The translations under genes and the position numbers were made by a program. From an uncultured bacterium (lineage in GTDB: Bacteria; Eisenbacteria; RBG-16-71-46; JABDJR01; JAWXBZ01): a stretch of DNA of 64,000 nucleotides. Shown piece after piece: positions 2,065 to 17,367 of this stretch; within the stretch, counting starts at the first letter, position 1, and each line of letters begins with the position of its first letter. The stretch spans positions 27,275-91,274 of the forward strand of contig CAZQVN010000007.1 of assembly GCA_964596775.1 (NCBI GenBank), given 5' to 3'. The notes beneath the pieces are model-generated. The model saw only the letters and a list, made by a program, of their open reading frames with translations. It had not been told where the DNA came from and did no database searches.

Positions 2065-4953
2065 ATGCCGCGATTCCCGCGAACAGGAGCACCTCCGCAC
2101 AGCAACACCCGCCGGCGCCCCGGGCCCGCGATGTTCGCCGGCCTCCTGGCGGTGGCGGCGGCCGCGCTGCTCTCCTCCGTCGCAACGGCCGGTCCCCCTC
2201 CACCCGACCCGATCTACCGGCAGACCGGCTACTGGGAACCCCCGTACGACTGGGCCGGCCGCGGAACGCACATGGCGCTGTTGCGCGGAACGGATTCGCA
2301 CAGCCAGATCATCTTCTGGCACTCCGGCGACGGCGTGCGGATCTGGAAATGGAACCCCGGCGACAGTCTCTCGGCCTCGAGTCCGATTCTTCTGCGACCG
2401 ACCCCGGGCACGGACGTTCACTGCGCGGGCGAATCGATGCTCACCGACGGCCGGCTCTACGCCACCGGCGGCAACGAGGTCCTCGGGATCGACGAGGTCA
2501 ACATCTACGACCCGGTCACCACGCAGTGGACCCAGCAGCCGCTCGACATGGAGTATCACCGCTGGTACCCCACGAACACGACGCTGGCCGACGGCCGGGT
2601 GCTGATCACCGCGGGGCTGATGTTCCAGGAATACGTGGGCTTCGGCGGGCGGGACGACACCCAGGTCCACGACGACCTGGCGGTGCTCGGCATGAGGAAC
2701 CCGAGCGCGAACCTGTGGATCCCCTCGCAGGCCGCGGCACCGCGGCCTTCCGCCCGGGAGGATCACACCGCGATCTTCGACAATGCCCTCGGCGCCACGA
2801 CCTCGAACAATTATCGGTTTCAGCACCGGACGGTGATCTTCGGCGGCCGGTCCTTCGGCGGCCCGCCGATGTCCGACGTGTGGGCGCTTCACCGCAGCGA
2901 GTTTTCCGAGTGGAGCTGGACGCAGCAGTTCCCCGCCGCCGACGCCCTGTGGGGAGCACCCGCGGCCCGGAGTGGTCACGCGGCCGCCTTCGACCGCCCG
3001 GACTCGAGCATGGTCGTGATCGGCGGAACCGATGCCGCCGGCCAGCCGCTCGGCGATGTCTGGAAGCTGTTCCTCTACCGGAGCGGGGGCGGCCTGTGGG
3101 CGCGCCTGTTTCCGGCCGGCGGCGACTCGACGCTGCCGCGCTCCGGACACACGGTCGTCTACGACGCCGCGGCGCGCCGGGTGATCCTCTTCGGGGGGCG
3201 GAGCGGTGCCGCGTACCACAACGACGTGTGGCAGCTGTCCCTTTCCGGAACTCCGGCGTGGACAAAACTGGTCACGACGGGAACGCCTCCGGCGCCGCGC
3301 GAGGGGCACGCCGCCCAGTTCGACACGGCGCGGAACCGGATGATCGTCTACGGAGGACGGAACGGATCGACGCCGTTCGGGGATGGCTTCACGCTCTCGC
3401 TCGGCGGCGGAACGCCCCAGTGGGCGGCGCTGACGCCGGCCCCCGACGCGCAGGCGGGAACCCCGGCGGCCCGGTTCGATGCCGCGGCCGCTTACGACGC
3501 CTACTCCGACCGCCTGCTGATTCACGGCGGCGACACCGACACGACGTCGGGCGCCGGTGCCGCCGGCGACTTCTGGGCCATCAACTTCTGGCCGGCCCCG
3601 GCCTGGCGGCGTCACCACGCGACCCTGCCCGCGGGAGGTCGCGCGGGGCACGCGGCGCTCCTCGATCCGCGGTTCCTCCACGCGCCGTACCCGGAGATCT
3701 ACGACCCCGACGCGGACACCTACACCCTGCTCGGCGACGCCCAAAAGGTGACGGTCTTCTATCCGAACATGTATCTCCTGCCGGGAGGCAAGGTCCTCAT
3801 GGCCGGAGCCCAGGTGTCCACGTTTCTCCTGAACCTGTCCACCGGCCAGTGGGAAACCCCGCCGTGGACGAACAGCGGATTCAGCGGCTTCACCGCGACG
3901 ATGTACCGCCCCGGCATGGTGCTCAAGTGCGGGGGCGCCGGCAACACGGGGGCCTCCACCACGAAGCGGATCGACCTTTCCGGCGACGTCCAGTCGGCCT
4001 CCTGGCAATCCGTGGCCGCCTCGCCGCCGCTGATCCCCCGCGTGCTCCAGAACCTGGTCGTCCTTCCGACCGGCGATGTGCTGGCCACCGGCGGCATGGG
4101 CGACCAGAACGTGGTGGCCACCGCCGTGCGGTACCCGCAGATCTGGAGCCCGGTCACGGATGCATGGACCGACTCCGCGCTCCTCGCCCCCGATCCCTGC
4201 GTGCGCGACTACCACTCGTCGTCGATTCTCCTGCCCGACGGACGGATCCTGTCGGCCGGAGGGGAGTTGAACGCCGGCCCCGGAGGTCGCGACAAGTTCC
4301 GCGCCTCGATCTTCTGGCCTCCGTACCTCTTCGACGCCGCGGGGGCACCGGCCGCCCGCCCGGAGGTGACCTCCTCCGACAGCGCCGCCGCCTACGGAGC
4401 CCCCTTCTCCGTCTGCACGCCGGCGGCGGCCTCGATCCAGAGCGTCTGCCTCATGCGACCCGCGGCCACGACGCACGGAGTGGACATGGAGGCGCGCTAC
4501 GTGCCGCTTGGCTTCAGCGTCAGCGGGAACTGCCTGTCCGTGACCGCCCCCCCGGACGGCAACACGGCGCCGCCCGGCCTGTACTTGCTCTATCTCGTGA
4601 CGCAGGACTCGGTGCCGTCGATCGGCCGCTGGATCCGCCTGGGCGCTCCGGTGTCCGGCGCGCCCCCCGCCGGGATCCGGACGCCGGAGCTGTCCGCCTA
4701 CCCGAATCCGTTCCGCGCCGGCACGCGGTTTCACTACGTCCTGGATCGCGGCGGACCGGTGTCGCTGGTCATCGTCGACGTGGCCGGAAGGGTCGTGCGC
4801 TCTCTCCTGGAATCGGAAACGGGCCGCGGCGCCCACGAGGCGGAGTGGAACGGGCTGGACGATCGAGGGGCGCCGGTGGCGGCGGGCGTCTATTTCGCGA
4901 GGCTGTCCACGGAGTCGGGAGTGAGCGTGAAGAAGGTGACGGTGAAACGGTAG
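2065..4953 (+). CDS. Secreted galactose-oxidase-like copper radical oxidase (AA5-like) with inserted Kelch propeller, DUF1929-like Ig domain and C-terminal FlgD-Ig/T9SS-like domain
   Basis: Signal peptide; DVHCAG, RWYPT, RDYHSSSILLPDGR and TTHG motifs; six Kelch GG repeats; C-terminal YPNPF...WNGLDDRG...GVYF. Confidence 0.85.
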   Translation: MPRFPRTGAPPHSNTRRRPGPAMFAGLLAVAAAALLSSVATAGPPPPDPIYRQTGYWEPPYDWAGRGTHMALLRGTDSHSQIIFWHSGDGVRIWKWNPGDSLSASSPILLRPTPGTDVHCAGESMLTDGRLYATGGNEVLGIDEVNIYDPVTTQWTQQPLDMEYHRWYPTNTTLADGRVLITAGLMFQEYVGFGGRDDTQVHDDLAVLGMRNPSANLWIPSQAAAPRPSAREDHTAIFDNALGATTSNNYRFQHRTVIFGGRSFGGPPMSDVWALHRSEFSEWSWTQQFPAADALWGAPAARSGHAAAFDRPDSSMVVIGGTDAAGQPLGDVWKLFLYRSGGGLWARLFPAGGDSTLPRSGHTVVYDAAARRVILFGGRSGAAYHNDVWQLSLSGTPAWTKLVTTGTPPAPREGHAAQFDTARNRMIVYGGRNGSTPFGDGFTLSLGGGTPQWAALTPAPDAQAGTPAARFDAAAAYDAYSDRLLIHGGDTDTTSGAGAAGDFWAINFWPAPAWRRHHATLPAGGRAGHAALLDPRFLHAPYPEIYDPDADTYTLLGDAQKVTVFYPNMYLLPGGKVLMAGAQVSTFLLNLSTGQWETPPWTNSGFSGFTATMYRPGMVLKCGGAGNTGASTTKRIDLSGDVQSASWQSVAASPPLIPRVLQNLVVLPTGDVLATGGMGDQNVVATAVRYPQIWSPVTDAWTDSALLAPDPCVRDYHSSSILLPDGRILSAGGELNAGPGGRDKFRASIFWPPYLFDAAGAPAARPEVTSSDSAAAYGAPFSVCTPAAASIQSVCLMRPAATTHGVDMEARYVPLGFSVSGNCLSVTAPPDGNTAPPGLYLLYLVTQDSVPSIGRWIRLGAPVSGAPPAGIRTPELSAYPNPFRAGTRFHYVLDRGGPVSLVIVDVAGRVVRSLLESETGRGAHEAEWNGLDDRGAPVAAGVYFARLSTESGVSVKKVTVKR

Positions 4954-4960
4954 GAGAGCC

Positions 4961-7153
4961 TCAGGCCGTCCCCTCCTCCTCCAGATCGTCGAACAGGAAC
5001 TGGTGCCGCTCCACGCTCGATACCCCCTTCACCTTCTTGATCGCCTTGATCACCCGTTGCAGGTGATTGAGGTTCTTGACCTCGATGATGAACGTGCCCT
5101 GGGCCTGGCCGTCCACGGATTTCATTCCGGCGTTCTTGATGTTCGTGGCCGTCGTCGAAACCGCCGACGCGATGTCCGCAAGCAGCATCTGGCGGTCGGA
5201 CCCGTAGATCACGAGCTTCACGACGAACGACTTGTCCTCGTCGACGTCCCACGAGAGGTCCATCCGCCGGTCCTTGTCGACCTTGTCCTCGAACGTGTTC
5301 GGACAGTCCACCCGGTGCACGGACAGGCCGCGGCCGCGGGTCACGATGCCGATCACCTGGTCGCCGGGAACGGGCTGGCAGCAGCGGGCAAAGTAGATCA
5401 TCAGGTTGCCCACGTCCTGGATGCGGATCCCCTTGCCGGTGCCGATCGTCAGGTCCTTGATCCGCTGGAGCGGGTTCAGCTCCTTCTTCTTCTCCGCGAT
5501 CTCCGGGAACAGGCGGACCAGCGCGTTGTGGGCGCCCACGTGACCTTCGCCGATGGCCCGGAGCAGCCGGAACGGATCGGGAAAGCCGAACGACTGCGCC
5601 GCGTCGATGAGATCCTTGTCCACCGGAACCTTCACGTGGAAGCGCCGCGCCTCGCGGCCGAGCAGGTCGCGGCCCAGCGCCACCGAGTCCTCCGTCCGCT
5701 GCTCGGTCAGCCAGCGACGGATCTTCTGGCGCGCCCGCGGCGACTTGACGATCGACGTCCACTCCTCGGTCGGATGCGCGGACGGCGAGGTCACGATCTG
5801 TATCGAATCCCCGTTCCGCAGCACGTACTTGAGCGACACGATCCGGTTGTTGACCCGGGCGCCGACGGTGCGATGGCCGATGTCGGTGTGAATGAGGTAG
5901 GCAAAGTCGAGCGGCGTGGATCCCTTCGGCAGCCGTTTCAACTCCCCCTTGGGGGTGAACACGAAGACCTCGTCCTGGTACAACGAGGTCTTGAGAAAGT
6001 CCATGAATTCGCCGCCCGACTCGTCGGAGAGCATTCCCGATTCGCCGAAGAGGTCGCCGAGCTTGGCGGCGAGTTCCGAATCGGGCCCCGACCCTTCCTT
6101 GTAGGAATAGTGGGCGGCGATTCCGAGTTCGGCGATCCGGTGCATCTCCACCGTGCGGATCTGCACCTCCACCATCTTGTGGTTGGGGCCGATGACCGTC
6201 GTGTGCAGCGACTGGTACATGTTCCCCTTCGGCGTGGCGATGTAGTCCTTGAACCGCTCGTGCACCGGCGTGAACAGGTCGTGCAGCACGCCGAGAACCC
6301 GGTAGCAGTCGGCCTTGTCCTGCGTGACCACCCGGACGCCGAGCAGGTCCTTGATGTCGGCGAAGTCGCGTTCCTGGGTGACCATCTTCCGGTAGATCGA
6401 GTAGAGATGCTTCGGCCTCCCGGTGACCTCGGCCCTGATTCCGGCCTTCTCCAGTTCGGTGGTCATCGGGGTCAGCACGTCGGAGATGAGCCGCTCGCGC
6501 TCCGACCGGGTCAGCGACACCTTCTCCGCGAGTTCCTTGTACCGCGGGTAGTTGAGATGCTTGAAGGACAGGTCCTCGAGCTCCCACTTGATCCGCCCGA
6601 TCCCGAGGCGATGCGCCAGCGGCGCGTAGATGTCCTGCGTTTCCCTGGCGATCCGCCGCGCCTTCTCCGGCTTCAGGAAGTCGAGCGTGCGCATGTTGTG
6701 CAGGCGGTCGGCCAGCTTGATGAGGATGACCCGGATGTCCTTGGCCGTGGAGAGGAGCATGCGGCGGAAGTTTTCCGCCTGTTCCGACTCGGTGGATTCG
6801 AACTCGAACCCGGTGATCTTCGTGACCCCGGCCACCAGCGCCGCCACCTCCTCGGAAAACTCCGTGGACAGCGTGTCCAGCGTGATGTCGGTGTCCTCGA
6901 CCACGTCGTGGAGCAGGGCCGCGATGAGCACCGTCTCGTCCACGCGCCCGTCGAGAAGCTCGACGAGAATGCGGGCCACCTCGACCGGGTGGTACATGTA
7001 CGGCTCGCCGGACTTCCTGAACTGGCCGGCGTGGGCGCTGTTCGAGAAATGAAACGCCCGCCGGATCGCGTCCCTGTCCAGATCGAGGTGCCGCGCGTCG
7101 ATTTCGCCGATCAGGGAATCGATGATGCCGCTCGACCTGTCCCCGGGAATCAT
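4961..7153 (-). CDS. rel: Bifunctional (p)ppGpp synthetase/hydrolase, long RSH
   Basis: RKSGEPY, LLHDVVED (HD), KLADRLHNMRTL, GRPKHLYSIYRKM, YQSLHT, TGS (PKGSTPLDFAY) and ACT domains. Start ATG 7153 overlaps the recJ TGA. Confidence 0.96.
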   Translation of the reverse strand: MIPGDRSSGIIDSLIGEIDARHLDLDRDAIRRAFHFSNSAHAGQFRKSGEPYMYHPVEVARILVELLDGRVDETVLIAALLHDVVEDTDITLDTLSTEFSEEVAALVAGVTKITGFEFESTESEQAENFRRMLLSTAKDIRVILIKLADRLHNMRTLDFLKPEKARRIARETQDIYAPLAHRLGIGRIKWELEDLSFKHLNYPRYKELAEKVSLTRSERERLISDVLTPMTTELEKAGIRAEVTGRPKHLYSIYRKMVTQERDFADIKDLLGVRVVTQDKADCYRVLGVLHDLFTPVHERFKDYIATPKGNMYQSLHTTVIGPNHKMVEVQIRTVEMHRIAELGIAAHYSYKEGSGPDSELAAKLGDLFGESGMLSDESGGEFMDFLKTSLYQDEVFVFTPKGELKRLPKGSTPLDFAYLIHTDIGHRTVGARVNNRIVSLKYVLRNGDSIQIVTSPSAHPTEEWTSIVKSPRARQKIRRWLTEQRTEDSVALGRDLLGREARRFHVKVPVDKDLIDAAQSFGFPDPFRLLRAIGEGHVGAHNALVRLFPEIAEKKKELNPLQRIKDLTIGTGKGIRIQDVGNLMIYFARCCQPVPGDQVIGIVTRGRGLSVHRVDCPNTFEDKVDKDRRMDLSWDVDEDKSFVVKLVIYGSDRQMLLADIASAVSTTATNIKNAGMKSVDGQAQGTFIIEVKNLNHLQRVIKAIKKVKGVSSVERHQFLFDDLEEEGTA

Positions 7154-8868
7154 GCTCCGGCCCTCACGTCGCGGAAGCGCAGCTGGATGGCGCCTTCGCC
7201 CGCGTACTCGTCGAGTGCCGGAGTGGCGGCGAGCGTGGCCCGGCCTCCGCCCCGGGCCAGTTCCTCCGCATGCTGGGCCAGGTTGAAGCCGATGGCCGTC
7301 ATCCGCTGCCGGCCGTTCGTCACCCGGAGCCGGAGATGACCGTCGCCGACAATCCGGGGCGGGCCCATCATCTTGAGGTCGCGCAGGAGGAACAGCGGCT
7401 CGGGACACCCGGCGCCGAACGGGCCGAGCCGGTCGAGAAAGTCGAGGAGCCCGGTGTCGAGGTCCTCCGGCTGAAGGTCCGCGTCGAGGGTCAGCGGCTG
7501 GTGGTCGGTGTCCGGCGCCGCGTCCCGGACCAGGCCGCAGAGCCGTTCGAACAACTCGTCGAGGCGGTCGCGGTGAACGGTCAGGCCCGCCGCCTGGCTG
7601 TGACCCCCGTGCGCGATCAGGATGTCGGACATCTCGGCGAACGACCGGCCCACATCGAAGCCGCCGAACGAGCGGGCCGAACCGCGGCCGACGTCTCCCT
7701 CCATGGAAATGAGCAGCGTGGGGCGGCGGAACGTTTCGGCCACGCGGGCGGCGGCGATGCCGATCACGCCGGCCGGCCAGTCGTTCGACCAGAGGACGAT
7801 CATGGGCGGGACCTCGCCGAACGCCTCGACCTGTTCCTTCGCGGCCAGCGTCACCCGCTGGTCCGCCTCGCGGCGCTCGGTGTTCATCGTCACGACATCC
7901 CTCGCCAGCGCCTCGGCCTGTTCGAGCGTGTCGGCGAGCAGCAGGTCCACGCCGAGCGAGGCCTTCCCCATGCGCCCGGTCGCGTTCAGCCGCGGAGCGA
8001 GCTGGAACGCCACCTGCGATGCGCTGATTATCCCGGGCGAAAGTTTCGCCGTGTTGCGGAGCGCCACGATGCCCGGCCACTCCGACCGCGACAGGGCGCG
8101 GAGCCCGTGCACCACGAACGTCCGGTTCTCGTCGGTCAGCGGAACGACGTCGGCGATCGTGCCGAGGGCCACCAGCGACAGCGCGTCCACGTAGACCAGC
8201 GGATCCAGGGAGCCCCGGCGCGTCATGGCCATCCCCTGGATGAACTTGGCCGCCACCCCGACGCCGCAGAGCCCGGTGAACGGGTACGTGGCGTCCTCGC
8301 GCATGGCGTCGACGACGGCCACCGCGTTGGGCAGCACCGGCGGGGGCTGGTGATGATCGAGCACGATCAGGTCGATGCCGTGACGGCGGGCCTCCTCGGC
8401 GGGCTCGTTGGCGGTGACGCCGCAGTCCACCGCGATGATCAGGCGGGCGCCGCGCCGGCGCGCCTCGGCAAGCCCGGCGGGCCCGAGTCCGTAGCCGTCC
8501 TTGACCCGCTCGGGCAGAAAATAGGACACGTCCGCCTTGAGTTCGCGAAGCATCTTGAGGAGAAACGACGTGCCGACGATGCCGTCCACGTCGTAATCGC
8601 CGTGCACGAGGATCGGTTCCTTCCGATCGATCGCCTGCCACGCGCGTTCGACGGCCCTGTCCATGTCGGGAAGGCCGAACGGATCGCGGAGCGCCTTGAG
8701 CCTCGGGTCGAGGAAGCGGGTGGCGGTTTCCGGGCTGGAAACGCCGCGGCGGAGCAGAAGTTCGGCGCCGATCCTCGGGACCCCGAGCGCATGAACGAGC
8801 GACGCGGCTTCCGCTTCTGGTACAGCGGGAGCCACGATCCAGTCGCGCTCCATCCCTTTCAGTCTCAC
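7150..8868 (-). CDS. recJ: Single-stranded DNA exonuclease RecJ
   Basis: GDYDVDG, VDCG, DHH, LGTIADVVPL, APRLNATGR, GSARS, GGHSQAAG; GGAGG before the GTG. Confidence 0.96.
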   Translation of the reverse strand: MRLKGMERDWIVAPAVPEAEAASLVHALGVPRIGAELLLRRGVSSPETATRFLDPRLKALRDPFGLPDMDRAVERAWQAIDRKEPILVHGDYDVDGIVGTSFLLKMLRELKADVSYFLPERVKDGYGLGPAGLAEARRRGARLIIAVDCGVTANEPAEEARRHGIDLIVLDHHQPPPVLPNAVAVVDAMREDATYPFTGLCGVGVAAKFIQGMAMTRRGSLDPLVYVDALSLVALGTIADVVPLTDENRTFVVHGLRALSRSEWPGIVALRNTAKLSPGIISASQVAFQLAPRLNATGRMGKASLGVDLLLADTLEQAEALARDVVTMNTERREADQRVTLAAKEQVEAFGEVPPMIVLWSNDWPAGVIGIAAARVAETFRRPTLLISMEGDVGRGSARSFGGFDVGRSFAEMSDILIAHGGHSQAAGLTVHRDRLDELFERLCGLVRDAAPDTDHQPLTLDADLQPEDLDTGLLDFLDRLGPFGAGCPEPLFLLRDLKMMGPPRIVGDGHLRLRVTNGRQRMTAIGFNLAQHAEELARGGGRATLAATPALDEYAGEGAIQLRFRDVRAGA

Positions 8869-8909
8869 CGGCGCCTCCGCAGGTTGGATGATTATATAAA
8901 TCCAATCCT

Positions 8910-8938
8910 AATCTAGGCTTCCGGTCACATCATGTCAA
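8910..8938 (-). promoter_or_regulatory. sigma70 promoter of recJ-rel
   Basis: Minus strand TTGACA (8938-8933)-17 nt-TAGATT (8915-8910). Confidence 0.75.
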
Positions 8939-8942
8939 GGAT

Positions 8943-10211
8943 TCAGGGGTCGGGGACCGCCACCCGGACCTCGAACGGGCCGCTGAAACCGTCCAGTCGC
9001 GCAAGGACCGCGCCGGTCGGACTGATGCGCACGAGTTGATCGGCCCGGAGATCCGTCACCCAGAGATCGCCGGATGCCGGGTCGCGCGCGAGACCTCCCG
9101 GGTTGCGGACGTCCGTCAGGGTCGTGATCGTCGTGCCCGCCGGATCCAGGCGGACGATGCGCCCCGCGGCGTTGTCGGTGACCCAGGCGCCCCCCTCGCC
9201 GTCGGAGATGACCTGGAACGGCGCCGCGAACGCATCGTTCCGGAACAGCACGGTGTCGGCGGCGCCGGACACCCGGAAGACCGCGCCGCCCCGGTCCGCC
9301 ATCCAGCAGTCGCCGGTGGCCGGATCCACCGCGACGCTGAACGGGCGGTCGAACCCTTCCAGGACCGTCATCGATCCGTCCGGCCGGCGGTGCAGCAGCC
9401 GCCCCTCGGAGTCGGCCACCCAGACATCGCCGCGACGGATGTCCAGGGCGATGTCCTCGGGAATTCCGATTCCCGAATCGGCGGACACGAGAACGGTGAG
9501 CGAAGGCGACCGGTGTTCGAGAACCGAAGGCCCGTAGATCCCGATCCAGACCGTGGAGTCCGCCGGATTCATGGCCACCGAGAGCGGCTGTCCCCCGGTG
9601 GACAGGGTGGCCTGCCGCGCTCCGTCGCGGTCGTACCGATCCACCTTTCTCTCGAAGAAATCCGCGGTCACGACCCCTCCGTTTCCGGGAAGGATGTCGA
9701 GGTCGCTCGGGATCCGGGTTCCTCCGGGGCGGGCGAGGACATGGCGGGCGTCCGGCGAAACGGGCGTGGGATTTCCGGACCGCTGATCGAGAACCCACAG
9801 CACCCGCCGACCCGGCGTGGCCGGCGACGGCGCCCCGCGGACCGGGGACGCATTCCCGGCGAAGAACGTCGAAAGCGTGTACGTGTAGGTGGAGTCGTTG
9901 ACGACCGCCGTGTCGAGCAGGGAGCGCGCGCCGCTCCCCGGCCCGGGATCGATCGTCAGCACGGCTCCGGCGGCATCCCGTCTTTCGATGGAAAAACCGA
10001 CGAGATCCGTGTACTCCGGCAGTTCCCACTCAAGGGTCACCCGGCCGTTCCCGGCGACGGCCGCGAAGATGTCCGGATTGCCTCCGGTGTCCGGGTTGTC
10101 CGGATCGAACAGGTTGTCGTGATCCCGGGGCGAGCATCCGGATGCGGAGAGCCAGAGGGCGGCGACGAGACCGATGACGGCGCCGCGCCACCGGGCATGC
10201 CTAGAAACCAT
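8943..10211 (-). CDS. Lipoprotein with FN3-like domain and NHL/Vgb-like beta-propeller
   Basis: Start re-placed at MVSRHARW; lipobox ASG-C; RDHDNLFDPDNP; repeats of P.(D/G/S)(L/I/V)A.D...G..WV.D. Confidence 0.75.
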   Translation of the reverse strand: MVSRHARWRGAVIGLVAALWLSASGCSPRDHDNLFDPDNPDTGGNPDIFAAVAGNGRVTLEWELPEYTDLVGFSIERRDAAGAVLTIDPGPGSGARSLLDTAVVNDSTYTYTLSTFFAGNASPVRGAPSPATPGRRVLWVLDQRSGNPTPVSPDARHVLARPGGTRIPSDLDILPGNGGVVTADFFERKVDRYDRDGARQATLSTGGQPLSVAMNPADSTVWIGIYGPSVLEHRSPSLTVLVSADSGIGIPEDIALDIRRGDVWVADSEGRLLHRRPDGSMTVLEGFDRPFSVAVDPATGDCWMADRGGAVFRVSGAADTVLFRNDAFAAPFQVISDGEGGAWVTDNAAGRIVRLDPAGTTITTLTDVRNPGGLARDPASGDLWVTDLRADQLVRISPTGAVLARLDGFSGPFEVRVAVPDP

Positions 10212-11121
10212 GCCGGACCCCCAGCCTGTAGCGGGCTTCGCCGGTGGCCGGTTCCAGGTCCACCGCGGCCGTCGGAACGAGCCCGCGCGGTTCCTCATGG
10301 ATGATCAGGAAGAACGTGGCCAGGAACGCCGCCTCGCCGACCGCCCACCCCACGAGGGACAGCCGGTCGAATCGAACCGCATCGTCGAACAGCCGCTTCT
10401 GGCGGTCGCGGTTTCCCGTCCGCAGGTACGCGTCGTAGCGATCGTCCGCCTGGTCCTTGAAACGCACGGCCGTGTAGACGCCCGCGGCAAGCAGAGTGAC
10501 CGATCCGCCGATCGCCAGCGCCCTGTTGCGGGCCCACCAGGAACCCTCGGAGGCACGGAGCCGCGCCGGAACCGGCGGCGCGAGCGGGTCGAGCTCCACC
10601 CGCTTCGAACCGGAAACGCGGGTATCGGCCAGGACGCTGTCGCCGGGCAGCGTCACCCGGCGGTAGCCGTCGAGGTCCACGAGCAGATCGGTGCCCCACA
10701 GCAACTCCGGCGGCAGGCGCACCGGAGTTTCCCCGATCGTGCGGCCGCCGGCGAGCACCCGGGCTCCCGACGGAGAAGTAAGCAGAACCGGACGGCCGAG
10801 TTCCACGGTCACGGTATCCCCGGCGGCCCCGGTGATCGAGACCGATTCGAAGGGGGGCAGAAGGCTCCGGTCGGCGGGGCGGAGCAGAAGGGTATGCCGG
10901 CCCGGTGCCACCGGGACTTCCTGGATGGAAAACTCCGTCCAGGGAACCGGGGCGCGTTCGGAGTCTCCGGTCAGGTCGATCAGGTCGGCCCCGTCCATGA
11001 CGACCGTGCCCGGACGGAGCACCACGAGCCGGAGCAGCAGGCTTTCCGACGCGGCGGCGGCGTGCGGATGAGCCGGAACGAAGGTCAGCAGCGCGAGGAG
11101 CAATACGGAGCGCGGTTTCAT
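10201..11121 (-). CDS. Exported PEGA-domain protein with C-terminal hydrophobic helices
   Basis: Signal peptide MKPRSVLLLALL; LTSPSGARVLAGGRTIGETP...DLDGY (PEGA-like); ATGA overlap with the upstream gene. Confidence 0.65.
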   Translation of the reverse strand: MKPRSVLLLALLTFVPAHPHAAAASESLLLRLVVLRPGTVVMDGADLIDLTGDSERAPVPWTEFSIQEVPVAPGRHTLLLRPADRSLLPPFESVSITGAAGDTVTVELGRPVLLTSPSGARVLAGGRTIGETPVRLPPELLWGTDLLVDLDGYRRVTLPGDSVLADTRVSGSKRVELDPLAPPVPARLRASEGSWWARNRALAIGGSVTLLAAGVYTAVRFKDQADDRYDAYLRTGNRDRQKRLFDDAVRFDRLSLVGWAVGEAAFLATFFLIIHEEPRGLVPTAAVDLEPATGEARYRLGVRHGF

Positions 11122-12245
11122 GGTCTCTCCCCCGCCTCCGGGTCGCCCGGCAGGGCGGCAAAGTCGTAGGCCACGATGCGGCCGCGGTCGCCGGCCACGA
11201 TCCACAGGCCGCCGGCCGGCACCGGAGGCACGGATACCGTTTCGGGATGACGGACCCGCGCCACAACCTCCCCCGTCTCCGCGCGGAGAACCCAGACGAG
11301 TCCCGACGCGGCCGCCACGGCCACGACGGCACCGTCGCCGGCCGCGGTTGCGCGGAACGGCCCGCCGAGGGCAACGCGCCACGCGGTCGACCCGTCCGCG
11401 GTATCGACGGCGGCCACGCTTCCATCGAGGCCGGCCATCACGATGCGGGACCCCGACCATTCCGGGCGGGAGGTCACCCGCATTCCCAGTTCCGCTTTCC
11501 AGAGGCGGTTTCCGGTGACGGCGTCGAGAAAGTCGAGCCGACCGTCCACCGAGGCGGCTGCCACCCGCTTCCCGAGGGCGGCAATGCCGCAGAGCGCACT
11601 CCCCACGTCGGCGGACCAGCGCTTTTCGCCGCTCCGCGCATCGACCGCGAAGACTTCACCGTTGCGCCCTGGGACGAGGAACAGCGCGTTCTCCCTGTCC
11701 AGCACCGGCGGGCCCCAGACATCGGCATTGAGATTCGTGACCCAGATGGGACGCCCCTCGTGGGGCGACAGGCCGAAGACGCGGCCGTCCCGGGTGGCCA
11801 GGAGTACGGCGCCCTCGAAGAAGAAGGCGCTTCCCGTCACCTCGCCGACTTCATGCCTCCAGCGGACCTTCTTCTTCCCGAGGTCGAACATGTACGCCGA
11901 GCCGTCCGGAACCGACGTTCCGGCAAACAGGGTGCCGTCATGCAGCGTCAGGCTCCCGGTTGCCGAGCCGTCGATCCGTTTCCTCCAGCGCCGGCGACCG
12001 GTGTCGGGGTCGTACTGGACGATCCGCCGGTCGGTGGTGGCCACGTACAGCGCGCCCGCCTCGAACAGGAGCGGCACCTCGATCCCCCGCCCGGCATCCT
12101 CGGACCAGGCCACGGCAGCGGCGGGAAGGGCGTCGAATCCATGCGGCGCGAGAGCCTCGCCCCGGCCCGAGCCCGCGCACCCGTTCAGGCCCCAGAGACA
12201 GGCGGCGGCCAGCAGGAGGAATCGGCGGTTAATAGTTGAATCCAA
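11118..12245 (-). CDS. BamB-like PQQ-repeat beta-propeller lipoprotein
   Basis: Lipobox LNG-C; repeated A.D..TG...W tryptophan-docking motifs. Confidence 0.85.
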   Translation of the reverse strand: MDSTINRRFLLLAAACLWGLNGCAGSGRGEALAPHGFDALPAAAVAWSEDAGRGIEVPLLFEAGALYVATTDRRIVQYDPDTGRRRWRKRIDGSATGSLTLHDGTLFAGTSVPDGSAYMFDLGKKKVRWRHEVGEVTGSAFFFEGAVLLATRDGRVFGLSPHEGRPIWVTNLNADVWGPPVLDRENALFLVPGRNGEVFAVDARSGEKRWSADVGSALCGIAALGKRVAAASVDGRLDFLDAVTGNRLWKAELGMRVTSRPEWSGSRIVMAGLDGSVAAVDTADGSTAWRVALGGPFRATAAGDGAVVAVAAASGLVWVLRAETGEVVARVRHPETVSVPPVPAGGLWIVAGDRGRIVAYDFAALPGDPEAGERP

Positions 12246-15093
12246 TGAAGAAGTCCGTATCCGTTCTCCGGGTCACCGTCCTGAAATCGGTGGTCCGGGT
12301 GAAGTCGAACCTGAGAACGAGAAACCCGCCCAGGCTCGTCCGCAGGCCGAGGCCGAACGCGCCGAACGGCGTGGGAACACCCTCCCCTTCCTCCCAGGCG
12401 TTGCCGGCATCCGCGAGCAGGGCGCCCTGCACGGGCGGCAGCCCGATGTTGCCGAACGGAAACCCGAGAAGGACGCCGTCGAGCAGCGGGAAACGGAGTT
12501 CATTGTTCCACAGCAGCGAACGGCTGCCAAACAGCGAGCGCCGGGGGAAACCGCGGAGCGAATGCGAGCCCCCGAGCACGAAACGCTGCCGGTTCGTACC
12601 CTCCGATATCCGCCCCTGGAGCCGGACGGCGTACCCGGAGCGGAAACCGATCCGGAAGTAGCGCCTCAGGTCGGCGATCACCGCCACGTTTTCCACGTTG
12701 GCCCGCTCGAGATCCGTGGTCACGCCGACTGCGAGGTTGTAGCGGCTTCCGTCGATCGGCCCCAGCGGGTTCCACAGGCTGTTGTCGTGGATCAGCGACA
12801 GGTAGTTCGTGGCCAGGACCGCGGTTCTCGCCTGCCGGAAGGAATCGTCGGAGCGATCCGAGTGGAACAGGAACAGCGAGGACTCGATCCTGTCGAACTT
12901 GGAAAACGGATAGCTGCCGATGAAGTTGACGCCGGCGCGCCGCTCGAAGTAGCGGAAGTCGCGCTCGTCGAGGAAGTCGCCGGCGAAGTGATACGCGCCG
13001 GCTCCGTAGTTGAACCGCCGGGTCAGGTTGAAGTAGGTGAAGCCGGCGTTGAACCGGGAGAGAAGGTCGCCGGTCGTTTCCGCGGTGTTCGACAGCTGGA
13101 AGAAGATGAGCTGGTCGCCGAGCTGGTCGGTCAGGAGCGCCTGCAGCCCCTCGCCGGACCCCAGTCCCGGGTCCACCGCCACGCCGCCCTGGGCAAAATC
13201 GAGGGAGAAACGCTTGCGGTACGGGATCGTTTCGGCCCGGACGTTCTCCATCCCGTCCTCGACACCCCACGGCAGCCGCATCTCCGTCGAATCGGGCGGC
13301 GAGCCTCCAGCCGGCGCGGCGAGGGAGGCCAGCGGCTCGGAATAGACCAGCGGTCCGTCCGCGGCCTCCACGGAGTCGATGCGGTAGATTCCGTAGCGAA
13401 GGCGATGGTACGCCGTGTAGAGGAACCCGTCGTCCGCCGGAAGCCAGACCGGGTCGAACGCCCCCCCCTGCAGCGACGTCACCCGGAATCCATGCCCGTC
13501 GAGATCGGTGACATGGATCTGCGGAGCGCCCGACCGATCGCTGACGAACGCGATCCGGTCGCCGGCGTGCGACCAGGCCGGGGCCCCGTCCTCGAAATTG
13601 CCCCGGGTGACGGCGCGGATCAGCCCGGTATCACGGTCGAAGAGGAAGATGTTGCGCGATCCGCTGCGGCCGTCCGGCGTCCGGTCCGAGGAAAAGGCGA
13701 TCCGTCTGCCGTCCGGGGAAAACGCGGGATCGAGGTCCTGGTACCAGTCGGCGGTCAGCTTTTCCAGCCGTTCGTCGTCGAGGTGGAACAGGTACAGGTC
13801 GGAGTGGCCGTTCTGCGAGAGGCCGGAAAACGCGACGAGCCGGCCGTCGGGGCTCTGCACCGGCGAGAGGATCCCGTTCAGCCCCTCGAACTGGTAGCGG
13901 GCGATCTGCCGGCGCTTCTTCAGGTCGTAGAGGAACAGCGCGTCGCGCTCGTGGAACTTGGAGGTGAAGACGAGGCGGCCGTCGTGCCCCACGTCGATGC
14001 GGCTCTGGAACGGATGGAGGGATTCGTACTCGGCGGTGCGCTCGCCTTCGACGATGACGTCCAGGTCCTTTTCCTCGCCGGCGATCGAGGCCATGTAGAT
14101 GTTCGTGTATCCGCTGCGCGGCGAGACGAAGAGAAACCGGTCCTCGCCGAGCCCGGCCGACGCCGGAACCAGCGTCGGCTTGAAGGACGGTCCGCGGACC
14201 GCGAGTGGCTTGCCGTCCTCGGTGGGGGTCCGGGCCATCTCGATGCCGGGATAGAAACGGAGCTTGAGCCGGCGGTGCCACTTTTCGGAGAGCTCCCGTT
14301 CCGAAATGCCGAGCGTGATGTTCAGAACGTCGCTGAACGAACGTCCCTTCCAGAGGTTCTGGTACAGCGCGGGAATGGCGTCCGGGCCGTATTCCTCCTC
14401 GATGAAACCGCAGAGATCCTGGCCGACCTTGTAGATCGTGAACGATCCGTAGAAGCGCCAGAGGTCGGGAATGGCCGGCAGCTGGTTCGAAAGCACGAGA
14501 TCCCGAAGGACCATCTCCCCGATGCCGTCCCACTTTCCCGACCAGAGATCGGCCATCCCCTCCGACATCCAGAGCGGCGCGTCCACCGGCTGTCCGCGAT
14601 AGTGCCGGCCGTACACGCTTTCAAGGATGGAGAGCTGGTACACGTGCACGAGTTCGTGATGGATCGTGGAGCGGAAATCCGACATCGAGCCGTTGAACGG
14701 AATGGCCACCCGCCCCTTGATGAACTCGGTGAATCCGGCCACGCCCTCCGGAAGAAAGAACGGGCTGATGTTCGTCTGCTCGAAGTCCTGGTGGCTGGCA
14801 TAGATGATCAGCGGAATGCGATGGTCCACATGCCAGGCAAAGCGCACCGCGAGGTCGGCGAACGACTCCTCGGCCATCGCCAGCGCGATGGTCGCCAGCG
14901 ATTCCTCTTCCGGATAGAAGAACAGATCGAAGTGGGGGCTCTTCAGCACGCGCCACTGAAAGTCCGTGTACTGAATCTTGTTCTTGCCGAAACTGATCGT
15001 CTGGCCCGAAGCGGGCTTCGGCGCCAGGCAGAGCAGTGCCAGGGCCAGCAGGAACGGCGGGGTGAGGAGGCCACGCCGGAGCGGAACAGTCAC
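12229..15093 (-). CDS. Omp85/BamA-family protein: peptidase-MA-like domain + PD40/TolB-like propeller + beta-barrel, no POTRA visible
   Basis: HELVH and LWMSEGMA; PD40 repeats (PAFSPDGRRIAFSSDR); barrel with LGGSHSLRGF and terminal FFIGFNY. Start GTG 15093 behind GAGGAGG, downstream of the promoter. Confidence 0.85.
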   Translation of the reverse strand: MTVPLRRGLLTPPFLLALALLCLAPKPASGQTISFGKNKIQYTDFQWRVLKSPHFDLFFYPEEESLATIALAMAEESFADLAVRFAWHVDHRIPLIIYASHQDFEQTNISPFFLPEGVAGFTEFIKGRVAIPFNGSMSDFRSTIHHELVHVYQLSILESVYGRHYRGQPVDAPLWMSEGMADLWSGKWDGIGEMVLRDLVLSNQLPAIPDLWRFYGSFTIYKVGQDLCGFIEEEYGPDAIPALYQNLWKGRSFSDVLNITLGISERELSEKWHRRLKLRFYPGIEMARTPTEDGKPLAVRGPSFKPTLVPASAGLGEDRFLFVSPRSGYTNIYMASIAGEEKDLDVIVEGERTAEYESLHPFQSRIDVGHDGRLVFTSKFHERDALFLYDLKKRRQIARYQFEGLNGILSPVQSPDGRLVAFSGLSQNGHSDLYLFHLDDERLEKLTADWYQDLDPAFSPDGRRIAFSSDRTPDGRSGSRNIFLFDRDTGLIRAVTRGNFEDGAPAWSHAGDRIAFVSDRSGAPQIHVTDLDGHGFRVTSLQGGAFDPVWLPADDGFLYTAYHRLRYGIYRIDSVEAADGPLVYSEPLASLAAPAGGSPPDSTEMRLPWGVEDGMENVRAETIPYRKRFSLDFAQGGVAVDPGLGSGEGLQALLTDQLGDQLIFFQLSNTAETTGDLLSRFNAGFTYFNLTRRFNYGAGAYHFAGDFLDERDFRYFERRAGVNFIGSYPFSKFDRIESSLFLFHSDRSDDSFRQARTAVLATNYLSLIHDNSLWNPLGPIDGSRYNLAVGVTTDLERANVENVAVIADLRRYFRIGFRSGYAVRLQGRISEGTNRQRFVLGGSHSLRGFPRRSLFGSRSLLWNNELRFPLLDGVLLGFPFGNIGLPPVQGALLADAGNAWEEGEGVPTPFGAFGLGLRTSLGGFLVLRFDFTRTTDFRTVTRRTDTDFFIGFNY

Positions 15094-15133
15094 GAAAAGA
15101 TCGCCTCCTCGACACGGGGAGAAAACTGCCCAA

Positions 15134-15163
15134 AGTCTAGTGACCAAAGGACTTCCCTGTCAA
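15134..15163 (-). promoter_or_regulatory. sigma70 promoter of the Omp85 operon
   Basis: Minus strand TTGACA (15163-15158)-18 nt-TAGACT (15139-15134). Confidence 0.7.
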
Positions 15164-15429: not shown

Positions 15430-15756
15430 ATGAGTTTTGTCGATCGCACCATTCAATGTCGTGACTGCGGTACTTCCTTCATTTTTACGGCCGGAGAGCA
15501 GGCCTTCTACCAGCAGAAGGGTTTTCAGAACGAACCGACGCGCTGCCCGAACTGTCGCCGCCAGAAGAAGGACAGCGCCGGACCGCGCGGAGGCGACTCC
15601 GGTCACCGGGGTGGAGGGGGCGGTGGGGGCAACCGCCAGCTTTTCAAGACCGTCTGCTCCGCCTGCGGAGCGGAAACCCAGGTTCCGTTCGCTCCCTCGG
15701 GAGACCGGCCGGTCTACTGTCGCAACTGCTACAACTCCCGACGCGGAGCAATGTGA
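15430..15756 (+). CDS. Zinc-ribbon protein with CxxC-x17-CxxC domain
   Basis: CRDCG..FIFTAGEQAFY..KGF.NEP.RCPNC, Gly-rich linker, CSACG...VPF.P...RPVYCRNC; SD AAGAGG. Confidence 0.9.
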   Translation: MSFVDRTIQCRDCGTSFIFTAGEQAFYQQKGFQNEPTRCPNCRRQKKDSAGPRGGDSGHRGGGGGGGNRQLFKTVCSACGAETQVPFAPSGDRPVYCRNCYNSRRGAM

Positions 15757-16216: not shown

Positions 16217-16645
16217 TCAGCTCCCGGCGCGCCCTTCGAGCTGCCCGTCGATGGCCTCGTTGGCCAGCCGGTCGGCGCGACCGTTCAGGGAGCGGGCCAC
16301 ATGCCGGAACCGGTACACGGGAATCTTCTTCAGCGCATCGAGAACCCGGGCGTAGAGCAGCTTCATCTTTTCGTCCTTGACCCGGTACTCGCGGTTGAGC
16401 TGCTTGACGACGAGTTCGGAGTCGAGGTGAAAGGAGACTTCGGCGGGGTTCATCGCGCCGACCCGTTCCACCGCGGACAGGAGCGCGGAATACTCGGCGA
16501 CGTTGTTCGTGCACTGGCCGAGGTATCCGTTCCACTCGTCGACGGTGTTTCCGGCCTCGTCGAGAACCACGATGCCCATGCCGGCGTGGCCCGGGTTCCC
16601 GCGCGCCGCCCCGTCCGTGTACACGGACAGAACGGGACGGCTCAC
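16217..16645 (-). CDS. rnhA: Ribonuclease HI family protein
   Basis: VYTDGAARGNPG, TNNVAEY, DSELVVKQ, N.RAD.LAN; GTGA overlap start. Confidence 0.92.
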   Translation of the reverse strand: MSRPVLSVYTDGAARGNPGHAGMGIVVLDEAGNTVDEWNGYLGQCTNNVAEYSALLSAVERVGAMNPAEVSFHLDSELVVKQLNREYRVKDEKMKLLYARVLDALKKIPVYRFRHVARSLNGRADRLANEAIDGQLEGRAGS

Positions 16646-17367
16646 GGCTCGCCGCCGTCTTCCGAAGCCAGCCAGACGAGGATGCGTCCGCACCCCTCGC
16701 ATACCCGCAGAGATTCGGCCTTCTTGACCTCGTTGACGAACTGGGGAGGGAGAGCGGTGAAACACCCCCCACAGGCGCCCCTCTGCACCGGAACGACGGC
16801 CTGTCCGCCCTTGGCCCTGGCGAGCTGGCGGAACTTCGACTGGACCTGCTGGGGAAGCAGCGTGGCGCGGGCGGCACTGTCGGCGCGCAACCGTTCCAGT
16901 TCGGCCTTCAACCCGGCCGTCTTCTGGTCGATTTCCCGCTGCCGTTCCGCGATCCGCGCCTTTGCCGCGTTCACATGCTCCCTGGCGGCCGCCACGCGGG
17001 TCGCGTGCTCCTCGTCCACCTCGAACGACTCGAGCACCCGCGTTTCCAGGTCCGATTTCTTTTCGCGGGTGAACGTGGCCTCGTTCTTCATGGCGTTGAG
17101 CTCGGCGTTGGACTTGGCCTGAGCCTGCTTGGTGGCGTTCTGTCGGAGGGCCTGTTCGAGGGTCTCGATCTCGCCTTCGAGATCCTTCCTCTTCCTGACG
17201 ACGAGGAGACGGGCGTCCTCGCACGCCTTGAGTTCGTTTTCCCGGACCTTCAGTTCCGCTTCCGCCTGCTCCAGGGCCCGGGGGAGGCGTTCCAGCTCCC
17301 CCTCGACGGCCTGGATCTCCGTTTCACACTTCTGGAGATCCCAGAGAACGTTCAGATCCAGCGCCAA
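16642..17367 (-). CDS. Coiled-coil C4-type zinc-ribbon protein (DUF164, CT398/HP0958-like)
   Basis: Long coiled coil, then CGGC...CEGCGRIL. Confidence 0.9.
   Translation of the reverse strand: MALDLNVLWDLQKCETEIQAVEGELERLPRALEQAEAELKVRENELKACEDARLLVVRKRKDLEGEIETLEQALRQNATKQAQAKSNAELNAMKNEATFTREKKSDLETRVLESFEVDEEHATRVAAAREHVNAAKARIAERQREIDQKTAGLKAELERLRADSAARATLLPQQVQSKFRQLARAKGGQAVVPVQRGACGGCFTALPPQFVNEVKKAESLRVCEGCGRILVWLASEDGGEP

Follow-up and report, generated by a model that had tools for sequence, protein, structure and literature searches.

What does an Omp85-type outer-membrane barrel do when it carries a predicted protease and a β-propeller in place of POTRA domains? Omp85 proteins form the core of outer-membrane biogenesis and, to our knowledge, nearly all experimental work on them concerns POTRA-bearing members (BamA, TamA, TpsB). 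The question is raised by a gene at 12229-15093 on the minus strand of a 64,000-nucleotide stretch of contig CAZQVN010000007.1, from an uncultured bacterium of the Eisenbacteria lineage; the whole stretch is referred to here as the window. The product is a member of the WD40-like subfamily, one of ten into which Heinz and Lithgow (2014; PMC4104836) split the Omp85/TpsB superfamily. In this subfamily an Omp85 barrel is joined to a protease that, judged by its residues, is apparently active; among the genomes sampled here, all those of two phyla and some two-thirds of those of a third carry it, mostly alongside a conserved lipoprotein partner. We put at about one in two the probability that the protein is an outer-membrane-anchored, periplasm-facing, propeller-gated zinc peptidase serving envelope protein quality control or maturation together with a BamB-like lipoprotein.

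Architecture and catalytic residues

To define the domain layout we used a full-length AlphaFold2 model built on a 37-sequence alignment (predicted local distance difference test score, pLDDT, 83.9; predicted template-modelling score, pTM, 0.82). The protein consists of five parts: a signal peptide, a gluzincin-fold domain (helical plus β, at residues 45-285), a six-bladed TolB-like PD40 propeller, a POTRA-less linker and a 16-strand Omp85 barrel. The corresponding features are as follows.

12229-15093, minus strand: peptidase-propeller-Omp85 coding sequence, 954 residues, stop codon within the span, reading frame open
15004-15093, minus strand: signal peptide, residues 1-30, read by eye
14953-14991, minus strand: N-terminal motif FGKNKIQYxxFxW, residues 35-47, near-invariant across phyla
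14239-14961, minus strand: gluzincin-fold (clan MA) peptidase domain, about residues 45-285, from the Pfam alignment, the domain model and Foldseek
14644-14658, minus strand: HELVH, residues 146-150, zinc-binding and catalytic motif (H146, E147, H150) predicted from sequence
14551-14574, minus strand: LWMSEGMA, residues 174-181, with Glu178 as predicted third zinc ligand, 28 residues beyond His150
13378-14211, minus strand: TolB-like PD40 β-propeller, residues 295-572, about six blades
13147-13377, minus strand: linker, residues 573-649, variable and mostly disordered, no POTRA
12232-13146, minus strand: 16-strand Omp85-type β-barrel, residues 650-954, AlphaFold2 strands spanning 650-952
12547-12561, minus strand: loop-6 motif SLRGF, residues 845-849, Arg847 invariant
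12403-12417, minus strand: LADAG (xDxG motif), residues 893-897, Asp895 invariant

The residues expected of a working metallopeptidase are strictly conserved. H146, E147, H150, E178, G179, Y221 and K222, as well as R847 of the barrel, are invariant across 37 full-length homologs (44-75% identity), and so are the HExxH, the glutamate and the glycine in a second set of 37 N-terminal domains, drawn from other phyla at 39-52% identity. Overall, HExxH and Glu178 show no variation down to about 35-40% identity. Modelled alone, the peptidase domain reached a pLDDT of 86 and a pTM of 0.84. Its best 50 Foldseek matches were all M9 collagenase peptidase domains or M1 aminopeptidases (query-normalised template-modelling score, TM, 0.40-0.59 over 255-290 columns, probability 1.0), 19 of them at E <= 0.001 with TM 0.45-0.59; the domain thus has the two-lobed, thermolysin-like fold of the gluzincins (clan MA(E)). 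The M9 matches comprised ColT (4AR9), ColH (7ZOC and 4AR1) and the Vibrio/Grimontia enzymes (7WSS and 7ESI), at TM 0.54-0.59; those to M1 comprised PepN, F3, IRAP, ERAP1/2 and LTA4H. Some homologs carry a precomputed match to Peptidase_MA_2 (PF13485).

Sequence comparison pointed in the same direction. A profile of the domain found a Vibrio collagenase at E = 0.002 and ColG at E = 0.05-0.1. In the latter alignment HELVH falls on HEYTH and WFTEGLAEY on WFDEGTAEF without gaps, with the glutamate 28 residues past the second histidine in both; in ColG the glutamate of WFDEGTAEF is a zinc ligand. The E178 region also aligns ungapped to WWSEGIAEY of a Vibrio collagenase, and Tyr221, invariant across phyla, aligns to a conserved tyrosine in Vibrio collagenases.

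Neither established family accommodates the domain. M1 aminopeptidases have a GxMEN exopeptidase motif and an HExxH-x18-E spacing; the window protein has no GxMEN and its glutamate lies 28 residues past the second histidine, so that M1 membership was rejected. Membership of the M9 collagenases was likewise not supported, since the window protein has neither a PF01752 match nor an activator domain, and the resemblance is limited to the catalytic half-domain. The domain is best called an M9-like or Peptidase_MA_2-type gluzincin, with zinc binding and catalysis predicted from its conserved motifs. A further invariant stretch, PEGVxGxT(E/D), lies at residues 115-123 (14725-14751, minus strand), about 30 residues ahead of HExxH and at the place of GxMEN in M1. 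The loop before it was modelled with low confidence in the full-length protein (pLDDT under 50 at residues 106-109 and 111-116); the stretch may be a substrate-binding edge strand.

In the propeller, Pfam PD40 matched at E = 8.8e-19, and residues 295-572 of the AlphaFold2 model form about 24 strands, a number that fits six blades. Among solved structures TolB is the closest in both sequence and fold, ranking first when the whole model was searched with Foldseek (E = 5e-10); the propellers of S9 peptidases and the tricorn protease also matched in Foldseek and profile searches. The protein was rejected as a TolB proper, as its TIGR02800 score of 121.8 bits compares with a cut-off of 343 and the alignment is limited to the propeller part. 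PF26549 and PF26550 appear among the precomputed domains of homologs.

At the N-terminus, the F, G, N, K and W positions of FGKNKIQYxxFxW show no variation or are conserved at 90% or more in both homolog alignments, and pLDDT is below 50 over residues 24-43 in both models, a range that spans the first nine residues of the motif. The linker is indel-rich among homologs, with pLDDT below 50 at 592-599, 603-607 and 635-647, and no Pfam POTRA match was present in the window protein at E <= 1.

The C-terminal barrel matched those of BamA, TamA, FhaC, Toc75 and Sam50 in Foldseek (E 4e-9 to 2e-7). In Omp85 barrels the xDxG motif partners loop 6, as known from BamA, and both motifs are retained here, with the chain ending in ...FFIGFNY, tyrosine last. 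Among sequence models, Pfam ShlB (PF03865) scored 24.9 bits, above its cut-off of 22.7, and NCBIfam NF047779 scored 32 bits against a cut-off of 200. The match to BamA was marginal, at 9.4 bits for NF058613 and E = 0.03-0.3 for PDB BamA entries by profile, and among the NCBIfam models TIGR03303 (BamA) gave no match to the window protein.

A first-pass annotation, made from the letters alone, had described the protein as a POTRA-less Omp85 with a signal peptide, an intact gluzincin-type domain, PD40/TolB repeats, a loop-6 RGF and an aromatic end. Its observations were confirmed and its domain reading agrees with the AlphaFold2 order of peptidase, propeller, linker and barrel. The concern it had raised, that the HExxH might lie outside a peptidase fold or vary among homologs, is answered by the gluzincin fold and by strict conservation in two alignments. 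Its interpretation held only in part, as the connection it drew to proteins with a TW-IK-LY tail found no support (see below).

Genomic setting and distribution

The gene heads a predicted operon, the further features of which are given here.

15134-15163, minus strand: sigma-70-like promoter TTGACA-N18-TAGACT, heading the operon, 10 of 12 consensus positions
15104-15110, minus strand: Shine-Dalgarno sequence GAGGAGG, 10 nucleotides ahead of GTG 15093
11118-12245, minus strand: BamB-like PQQ-propeller lipoprotein gene, 375 residues, LNGC lipobox, 17-nucleotide overlap with the Omp85 gene
10201-11121, minus strand: signal-peptide protein with two C-terminal hydrophobic segments, its start overlapping the preceding stop (ATGA)
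8943-10211, minus strand: NHL-repeat lipoprotein gene, ASGC lipobox, last gene of the operon
8910-8938, minus strand: promoter-like site TTGACA-N17-TAGATT, directly past the last stop of the operon and preceding a 1314-residue open reading frame (ORF) at 4961-8905 (minus strand)

The ORF that ends at 12229 has two candidate starts, TTG 15147 and GTG 15093. GTG 15093 is the better start because GAGGAGG and the promoter precede it and TTG 15147 falls within the spacer of that promoter; this is also the start that had been annotated. The region contains four promoter-like sites, where shuffled sequence would yield 0.5. The signal peptide that follows has two arginines, a hydrophobic core and an end at PASG, ahead of Q, and in the alignment the conserved mature N-terminus of the homologs begins at A-Q, the same point.

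The four genes form one predicted operon bounded by promoter-like sites. The BamB-like protein matched PQQ_2 at E = 2.6e-36 and TIGR03300 at 189 bits, short of its cut-off of 285; the protein of 10201-11121 has a weak PEGA match (E = 0.003), under the cut-off. By tblastn, a BamB-like gene lies directly downstream on the same strand in at least 39 of the 68 related loci that have downstream room, labelled Eisenbacteria, Zixibacteria, Ignavibacteria, Bacteroidota, Calditrichota, Latescibacteria and KSB1. This count is a lower bound. A second one, made with jackhmmer on called downstream ORFs, adds two more loci; it gave 37 of 65, an undercount because its first-start rule dropped ORFs starting upstream. 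NHL relatives were present in 13 related loci and PEGA-like relatives in 8. The pairing outside Proteobacteria is worth noting because a 2026 review places the origin of BamB within Proteobacteria (PMC13067283).

The assembly (4.5 Mb, 99% complete) contains ten matches to the Omp85 model. One is a canonical BamA on contig C3 (143559-145970), which scores 462 bits with TIGR03303, over the cut-off, in a frame of 892 residues. The presence of this gene, a check that the first-pass annotation had proposed, rules out the window protein as the genome's own BamA with diverged POTRAs. A paralog of the window protein lies on contig C15 (29374-32448; minus strand, 2324-5521 of locus L095) and has 1066 residues, the same domain order and 31% identity to the window protein. 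It retains HELVH and WFMEGMAEY, has a longer linker than the window protein and reaches 20.3 bits with Peptidase_M9 against a cut-off of 26. The paralog adjoins a PMT_2/TPR membrane glycosyltransferase-like gene (L095:244-2337). An adjacency of the bamA-tamB kind was rejected here, the canonical BamA being on C3 and the two family copies on C7 and C15.

The family is large and widespread. A protein collection clustered at 90% contains more than 2,200 homologs, of which the nearest ones that bear a name are from Candidatus Eisenbacteria. In clusters built at 50% identity, a profile of the N-terminal domain recovered 1,246 representatives with E <= 1e-30, and of the 150 top-ranking ones most measure 900-1,130 residues. 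At least 547 stretches encoding relatives were found in a scan of species genomes. The labels among the relatives listed include Eisenbacteria, Gemmatimonadota, Zixibacteria, Latescibacteria, Calditrichota, Ignavibacteria, Bacteroidota, KSB1, Marinimicrobia and Glassbacteria.

Within phyla, the family behaves as a core gene, which fits a housekeeping role in the envelope. In the phylum of the window the peptidase-domain profile was positive in 81 of 81 genomes and 46 of 46 genera, usually with two copies, one short, as in the window, and one long (1,070-1,130 residues), similar to the paralog. The domain was likewise present in all 101 genomes of the phylum of locus L060, and in 83 of 121 genomes of the phylum of L083 (labelled Bacteroidota). 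The phylum of L060 may be KSB1 rather than Bacteroidota, since its sample includes a KSB1-labelled genome. L060 (G024, 'uncultured Cytophagia'), L057 (G023, KSB1) and L036 (G013) share one phylum sample, and at least one of the record labels of L060 and L057 is probably wrong.

Two observations concern the other side of the operon. Divergent from it, at 15430-15756 (plus strand), is a 108-residue protein with two treble-clef zinc fingers split by a glycine-rich stretch (zf_Tbcl, E = 2e-22; zf_Tbcl_2, E = 9e-19). At 16217-17367 (minus strand), an RNase H-like and a Zn_ribbon_9/CT398-like ORF overlap on the same strand in different frames, and the true start of the RNase H gene is probably located far within the long ORF; the gene order rpoD, zinc-ribbon gene, target is kept in four related loci (L019, L020, L021, L086).

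Proposed function and alternatives

These data allow us to propose how the protein might work. After removal of the signal peptide, the C-terminal 16-strand barrel would be seated in the outer membrane and would hold the two soluble N-terminal domains, which would most likely face the periplasm, as do their counterparts in studied Omp85 proteins such as BamA. His146, His150 and Glu178 would bind zinc, with Glu147 as the general base, and the propeller would probably restrict or deliver substrates, as in S9 peptidases and the tricorn protease. The BamB-like lipoprotein of the same operon would be the likely partner, and this quality control or maturation would proceed alongside the canonical BAM complex, for which the genome is also equipped. 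If this is true, and the protein belongs to a machine of outer-membrane quality control or maturation, the subfamily would represent a third functional class of Omp85 system and part of basic envelope biology in Bacteroidota-related bacteria.

Several points weigh against this proposal. The peptidase domain scores 26.0 bits with Peptidase_MA_2, under the cut-off of 32.4 (aligned over positions 5-199 of 201), and the barrel scores 21.5 bits with Pfam Omp85 (PF01103), below the cut-off of 24. The BamB-like neighbour is absent from most Gemmatimonadota loci and from some of Eisenbacteria. It could moreover serve the canonical BamA instead, being the best full-length BamB-like gene of the genome: of the two TIGR03300 matches found there, the other lies at C3:26469-27410 within a 731-residue frame, and no match in the genome reaches the cut-off of that model. 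By analogy with PlpD, whose type of barrel exports its own N-terminal enzyme domain, a location at the cell surface is possible. Finally, the literature that we found on the subfamily consists of the 2014 catalogue and papers citing it, with no functional study of any member among them.

A wider form of the proposal can be put forward only tentatively, and we regard it as possible rather than probable. Here the short form and the BamB-like lipoprotein would make up an ancient outer-membrane machine of the FCB group, distinct from BAM and TAM, in which a non-inserting barrel would recognise unfolded or stalled envelope proteins and hand them for destruction or maturation to the tethered, propeller-gated peptidase, with PEGA and NHL proteins joining in some lineages, as in the operon described here.

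The first rival to the periplasmic peptidase is a surface protease exported by its own barrel, in the manner of type Vd secretion. The barrel would move the peptidase and the propeller to the outside, where the enzyme would degrade external proteins or process those of the surface. The long, disordered, length-variable linker resembles a passenger-barrel tether, the nearest peptidase folds include secreted collagenases, and surface delivery of the PlpD kind has been raised by Heinz and Lithgow, for the different subfamily 'Metallo' (PMC4104836). However, the window protein, unlike PlpD, has no POTRA, and a folded six-bladed propeller would be a demanding passenger. One or two copies in every genome of a phylum look like housekeeping, not nutrient acquisition. 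The genome has eight PorV-like matches, on contigs C27, C2, C5, C6, C55, C3 and C16, none of them near either copy; on that basis a linkage to type IX secretion was also rejected in this genome. We consider self-export unlikely.

A second rival is an insertase or translocase like BamA or TamA, whose tethered peptidase would cut clients in passage, for example by removing a TWxxIKxLY tail. Retention of the loop-6 RGF and the xDxG of working Omp85 proteins, and a conserved partner that is BamB-like, are in its favour. The first-pass annotation had suggested such handling of tailed proteins, and we scanned 36 genomes with a DNA pattern for TWxxIKxLY, a strict pattern that misses diverged tails. 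It gave nine matches in the window's own genome, a further point in favour, and none for a reversed-pattern control, one to three matches in each of five other genomes (four labelled Eisenbacteria and a fifth that shares the window's gene order), and none in 30 of the 35 other genomes that hold the family. The family is near-universal across several phyla and hence much wider than the tail, to which it is therefore not dedicated; a dedicated TWxxIKxLY peptidase is unsupported, and a use with the tail in particular lineages is conceivable, although nothing supports it. The operon contains no tailed gene, and the protein has no POTRA to take up clients. Overall we judge a cutting insertase to be distinctly improbable.

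Least probable, and in our view very unlikely, is a non-catalytic scaffold in which the peptidase-like domain and propeller bind partners as in a BamA-BamB fusion and the HExxH is a structural metal site; Heinz and Lithgow read the propeller as a BamB-like platform (PMC4104836) and the peptidase family models score below their cut-offs, but Glu147, all three predicted zinc ligands and Tyr221 are invariant across phyla, as expected of a working enzyme.

Relation to known systems

The collagenases of family M9 (ColG, ColH, ColT and the Vibrio enzymes) are the best fold matches of the peptidase domain and share with it the HExxH and WxxEGxAE motifs at a 28-residue spacing. The window protein differs in having no activator, collagen-binding or PKD domains, and identity is 10-15%. 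TolB combines an N-terminal α/β domain with a six-bladed propeller, of which the window protein shares the propeller part only. The conserved yet unstructured N-terminal peptide recalls the disordered N-terminal binding epitope of TolB and, by this analogy, the FGKNKxQYxxFxW peptide could be a docking segment for a partner or for the barrel. With BamA and TamA the protein has in common the 16-strand barrel (Foldseek TM 0.5-0.6), the loop-6 RGF, the xDxG and the aromatic C-terminus; it differs from them in being without POTRA domains, of which BamA has five.

For an enzyme that works at an Omp85 barrel or is joined to one, two systems offer comparisons. BepA of E. coli, an M48 metalloprotease with TPR repeats, is an analogy for how the protein might work, as it is a periplasmic zinc protease acting at BAM in outer-membrane protein quality control. 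It belongs, however, to another peptidase family and fold and is a separate soluble protein with no barrel fusion and no propeller. PlpD, the patatin-like Omp85 of type Vd secretion, likewise has an enzyme domain N-terminal to an Omp85-type barrel (PMC4104836); it has its own POTRA domain, a lipase passenger and demonstrated export, whereas the window protein is without POTRA.

The closest match is the WD40-like subfamily, in which a TolB-like propeller replaces the POTRA domains (PMC4104836). The first-pass annotation had pointed to subfamilies of Omp85 other than BamA in which the N-terminus is of WD40 type or enzymatic; the 2014 catalogue bears this out and leaves the protein less novel than had been implied. 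Members listed there include H1XQ58, D0MEQ5, B4UC98 and A9FGN9, from cultured organisms. Its Table S2 lists PF01103 with PF07676 repeats, and PF00930 is also among the Pfam combinations of the subfamily. Phyre2 matched the barrel to BamA (4K3B) and TamA (4C00) and the propeller to 2W8B and 2IVZ, and Table S3 gives as 'best aminopeptidase hit' 1Z5H, 4KXD, 4FGM, 3QNF and ColH 4AR1, at about 99% confidence (PMC4104836). The work is a catalogue without experiments, the main text of which treats the propeller only, as a BamA-BamB-like fusion; in that text and the supplementary tables we found no mention of invariant catalytic residues, of a BamB-like neighbour gene or of near-universal presence in FCB-group phyla. 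A 2024 paper sums up the subfamily as carrying 'divergent WD40 and peptidase domains' (PMC11358297).

The window protein has the same three-part, POTRA-less design of barrel, PD40 propeller and N-terminal aminopeptidase-like domain. Our fold matches overlap those of Table S3, directly at 4AR1 and 3QNF (ERAP1) and through other structures of F3 (1Z1W and 3Q7J, compared with 1Z5H) and of aminopeptidase A (4KX7, compared with 4KXD), and relatives of the protein occur in overlapping groups (Calditrichota, Bacteroidota and Ignavibacteria) at 35-43% identity. Placed by architecture, fold matches and taxa, the window protein is a WD40-like Omp85. It adds one member and comparative detail, rather than a new kind of system, to an architecture that had already been catalogued.

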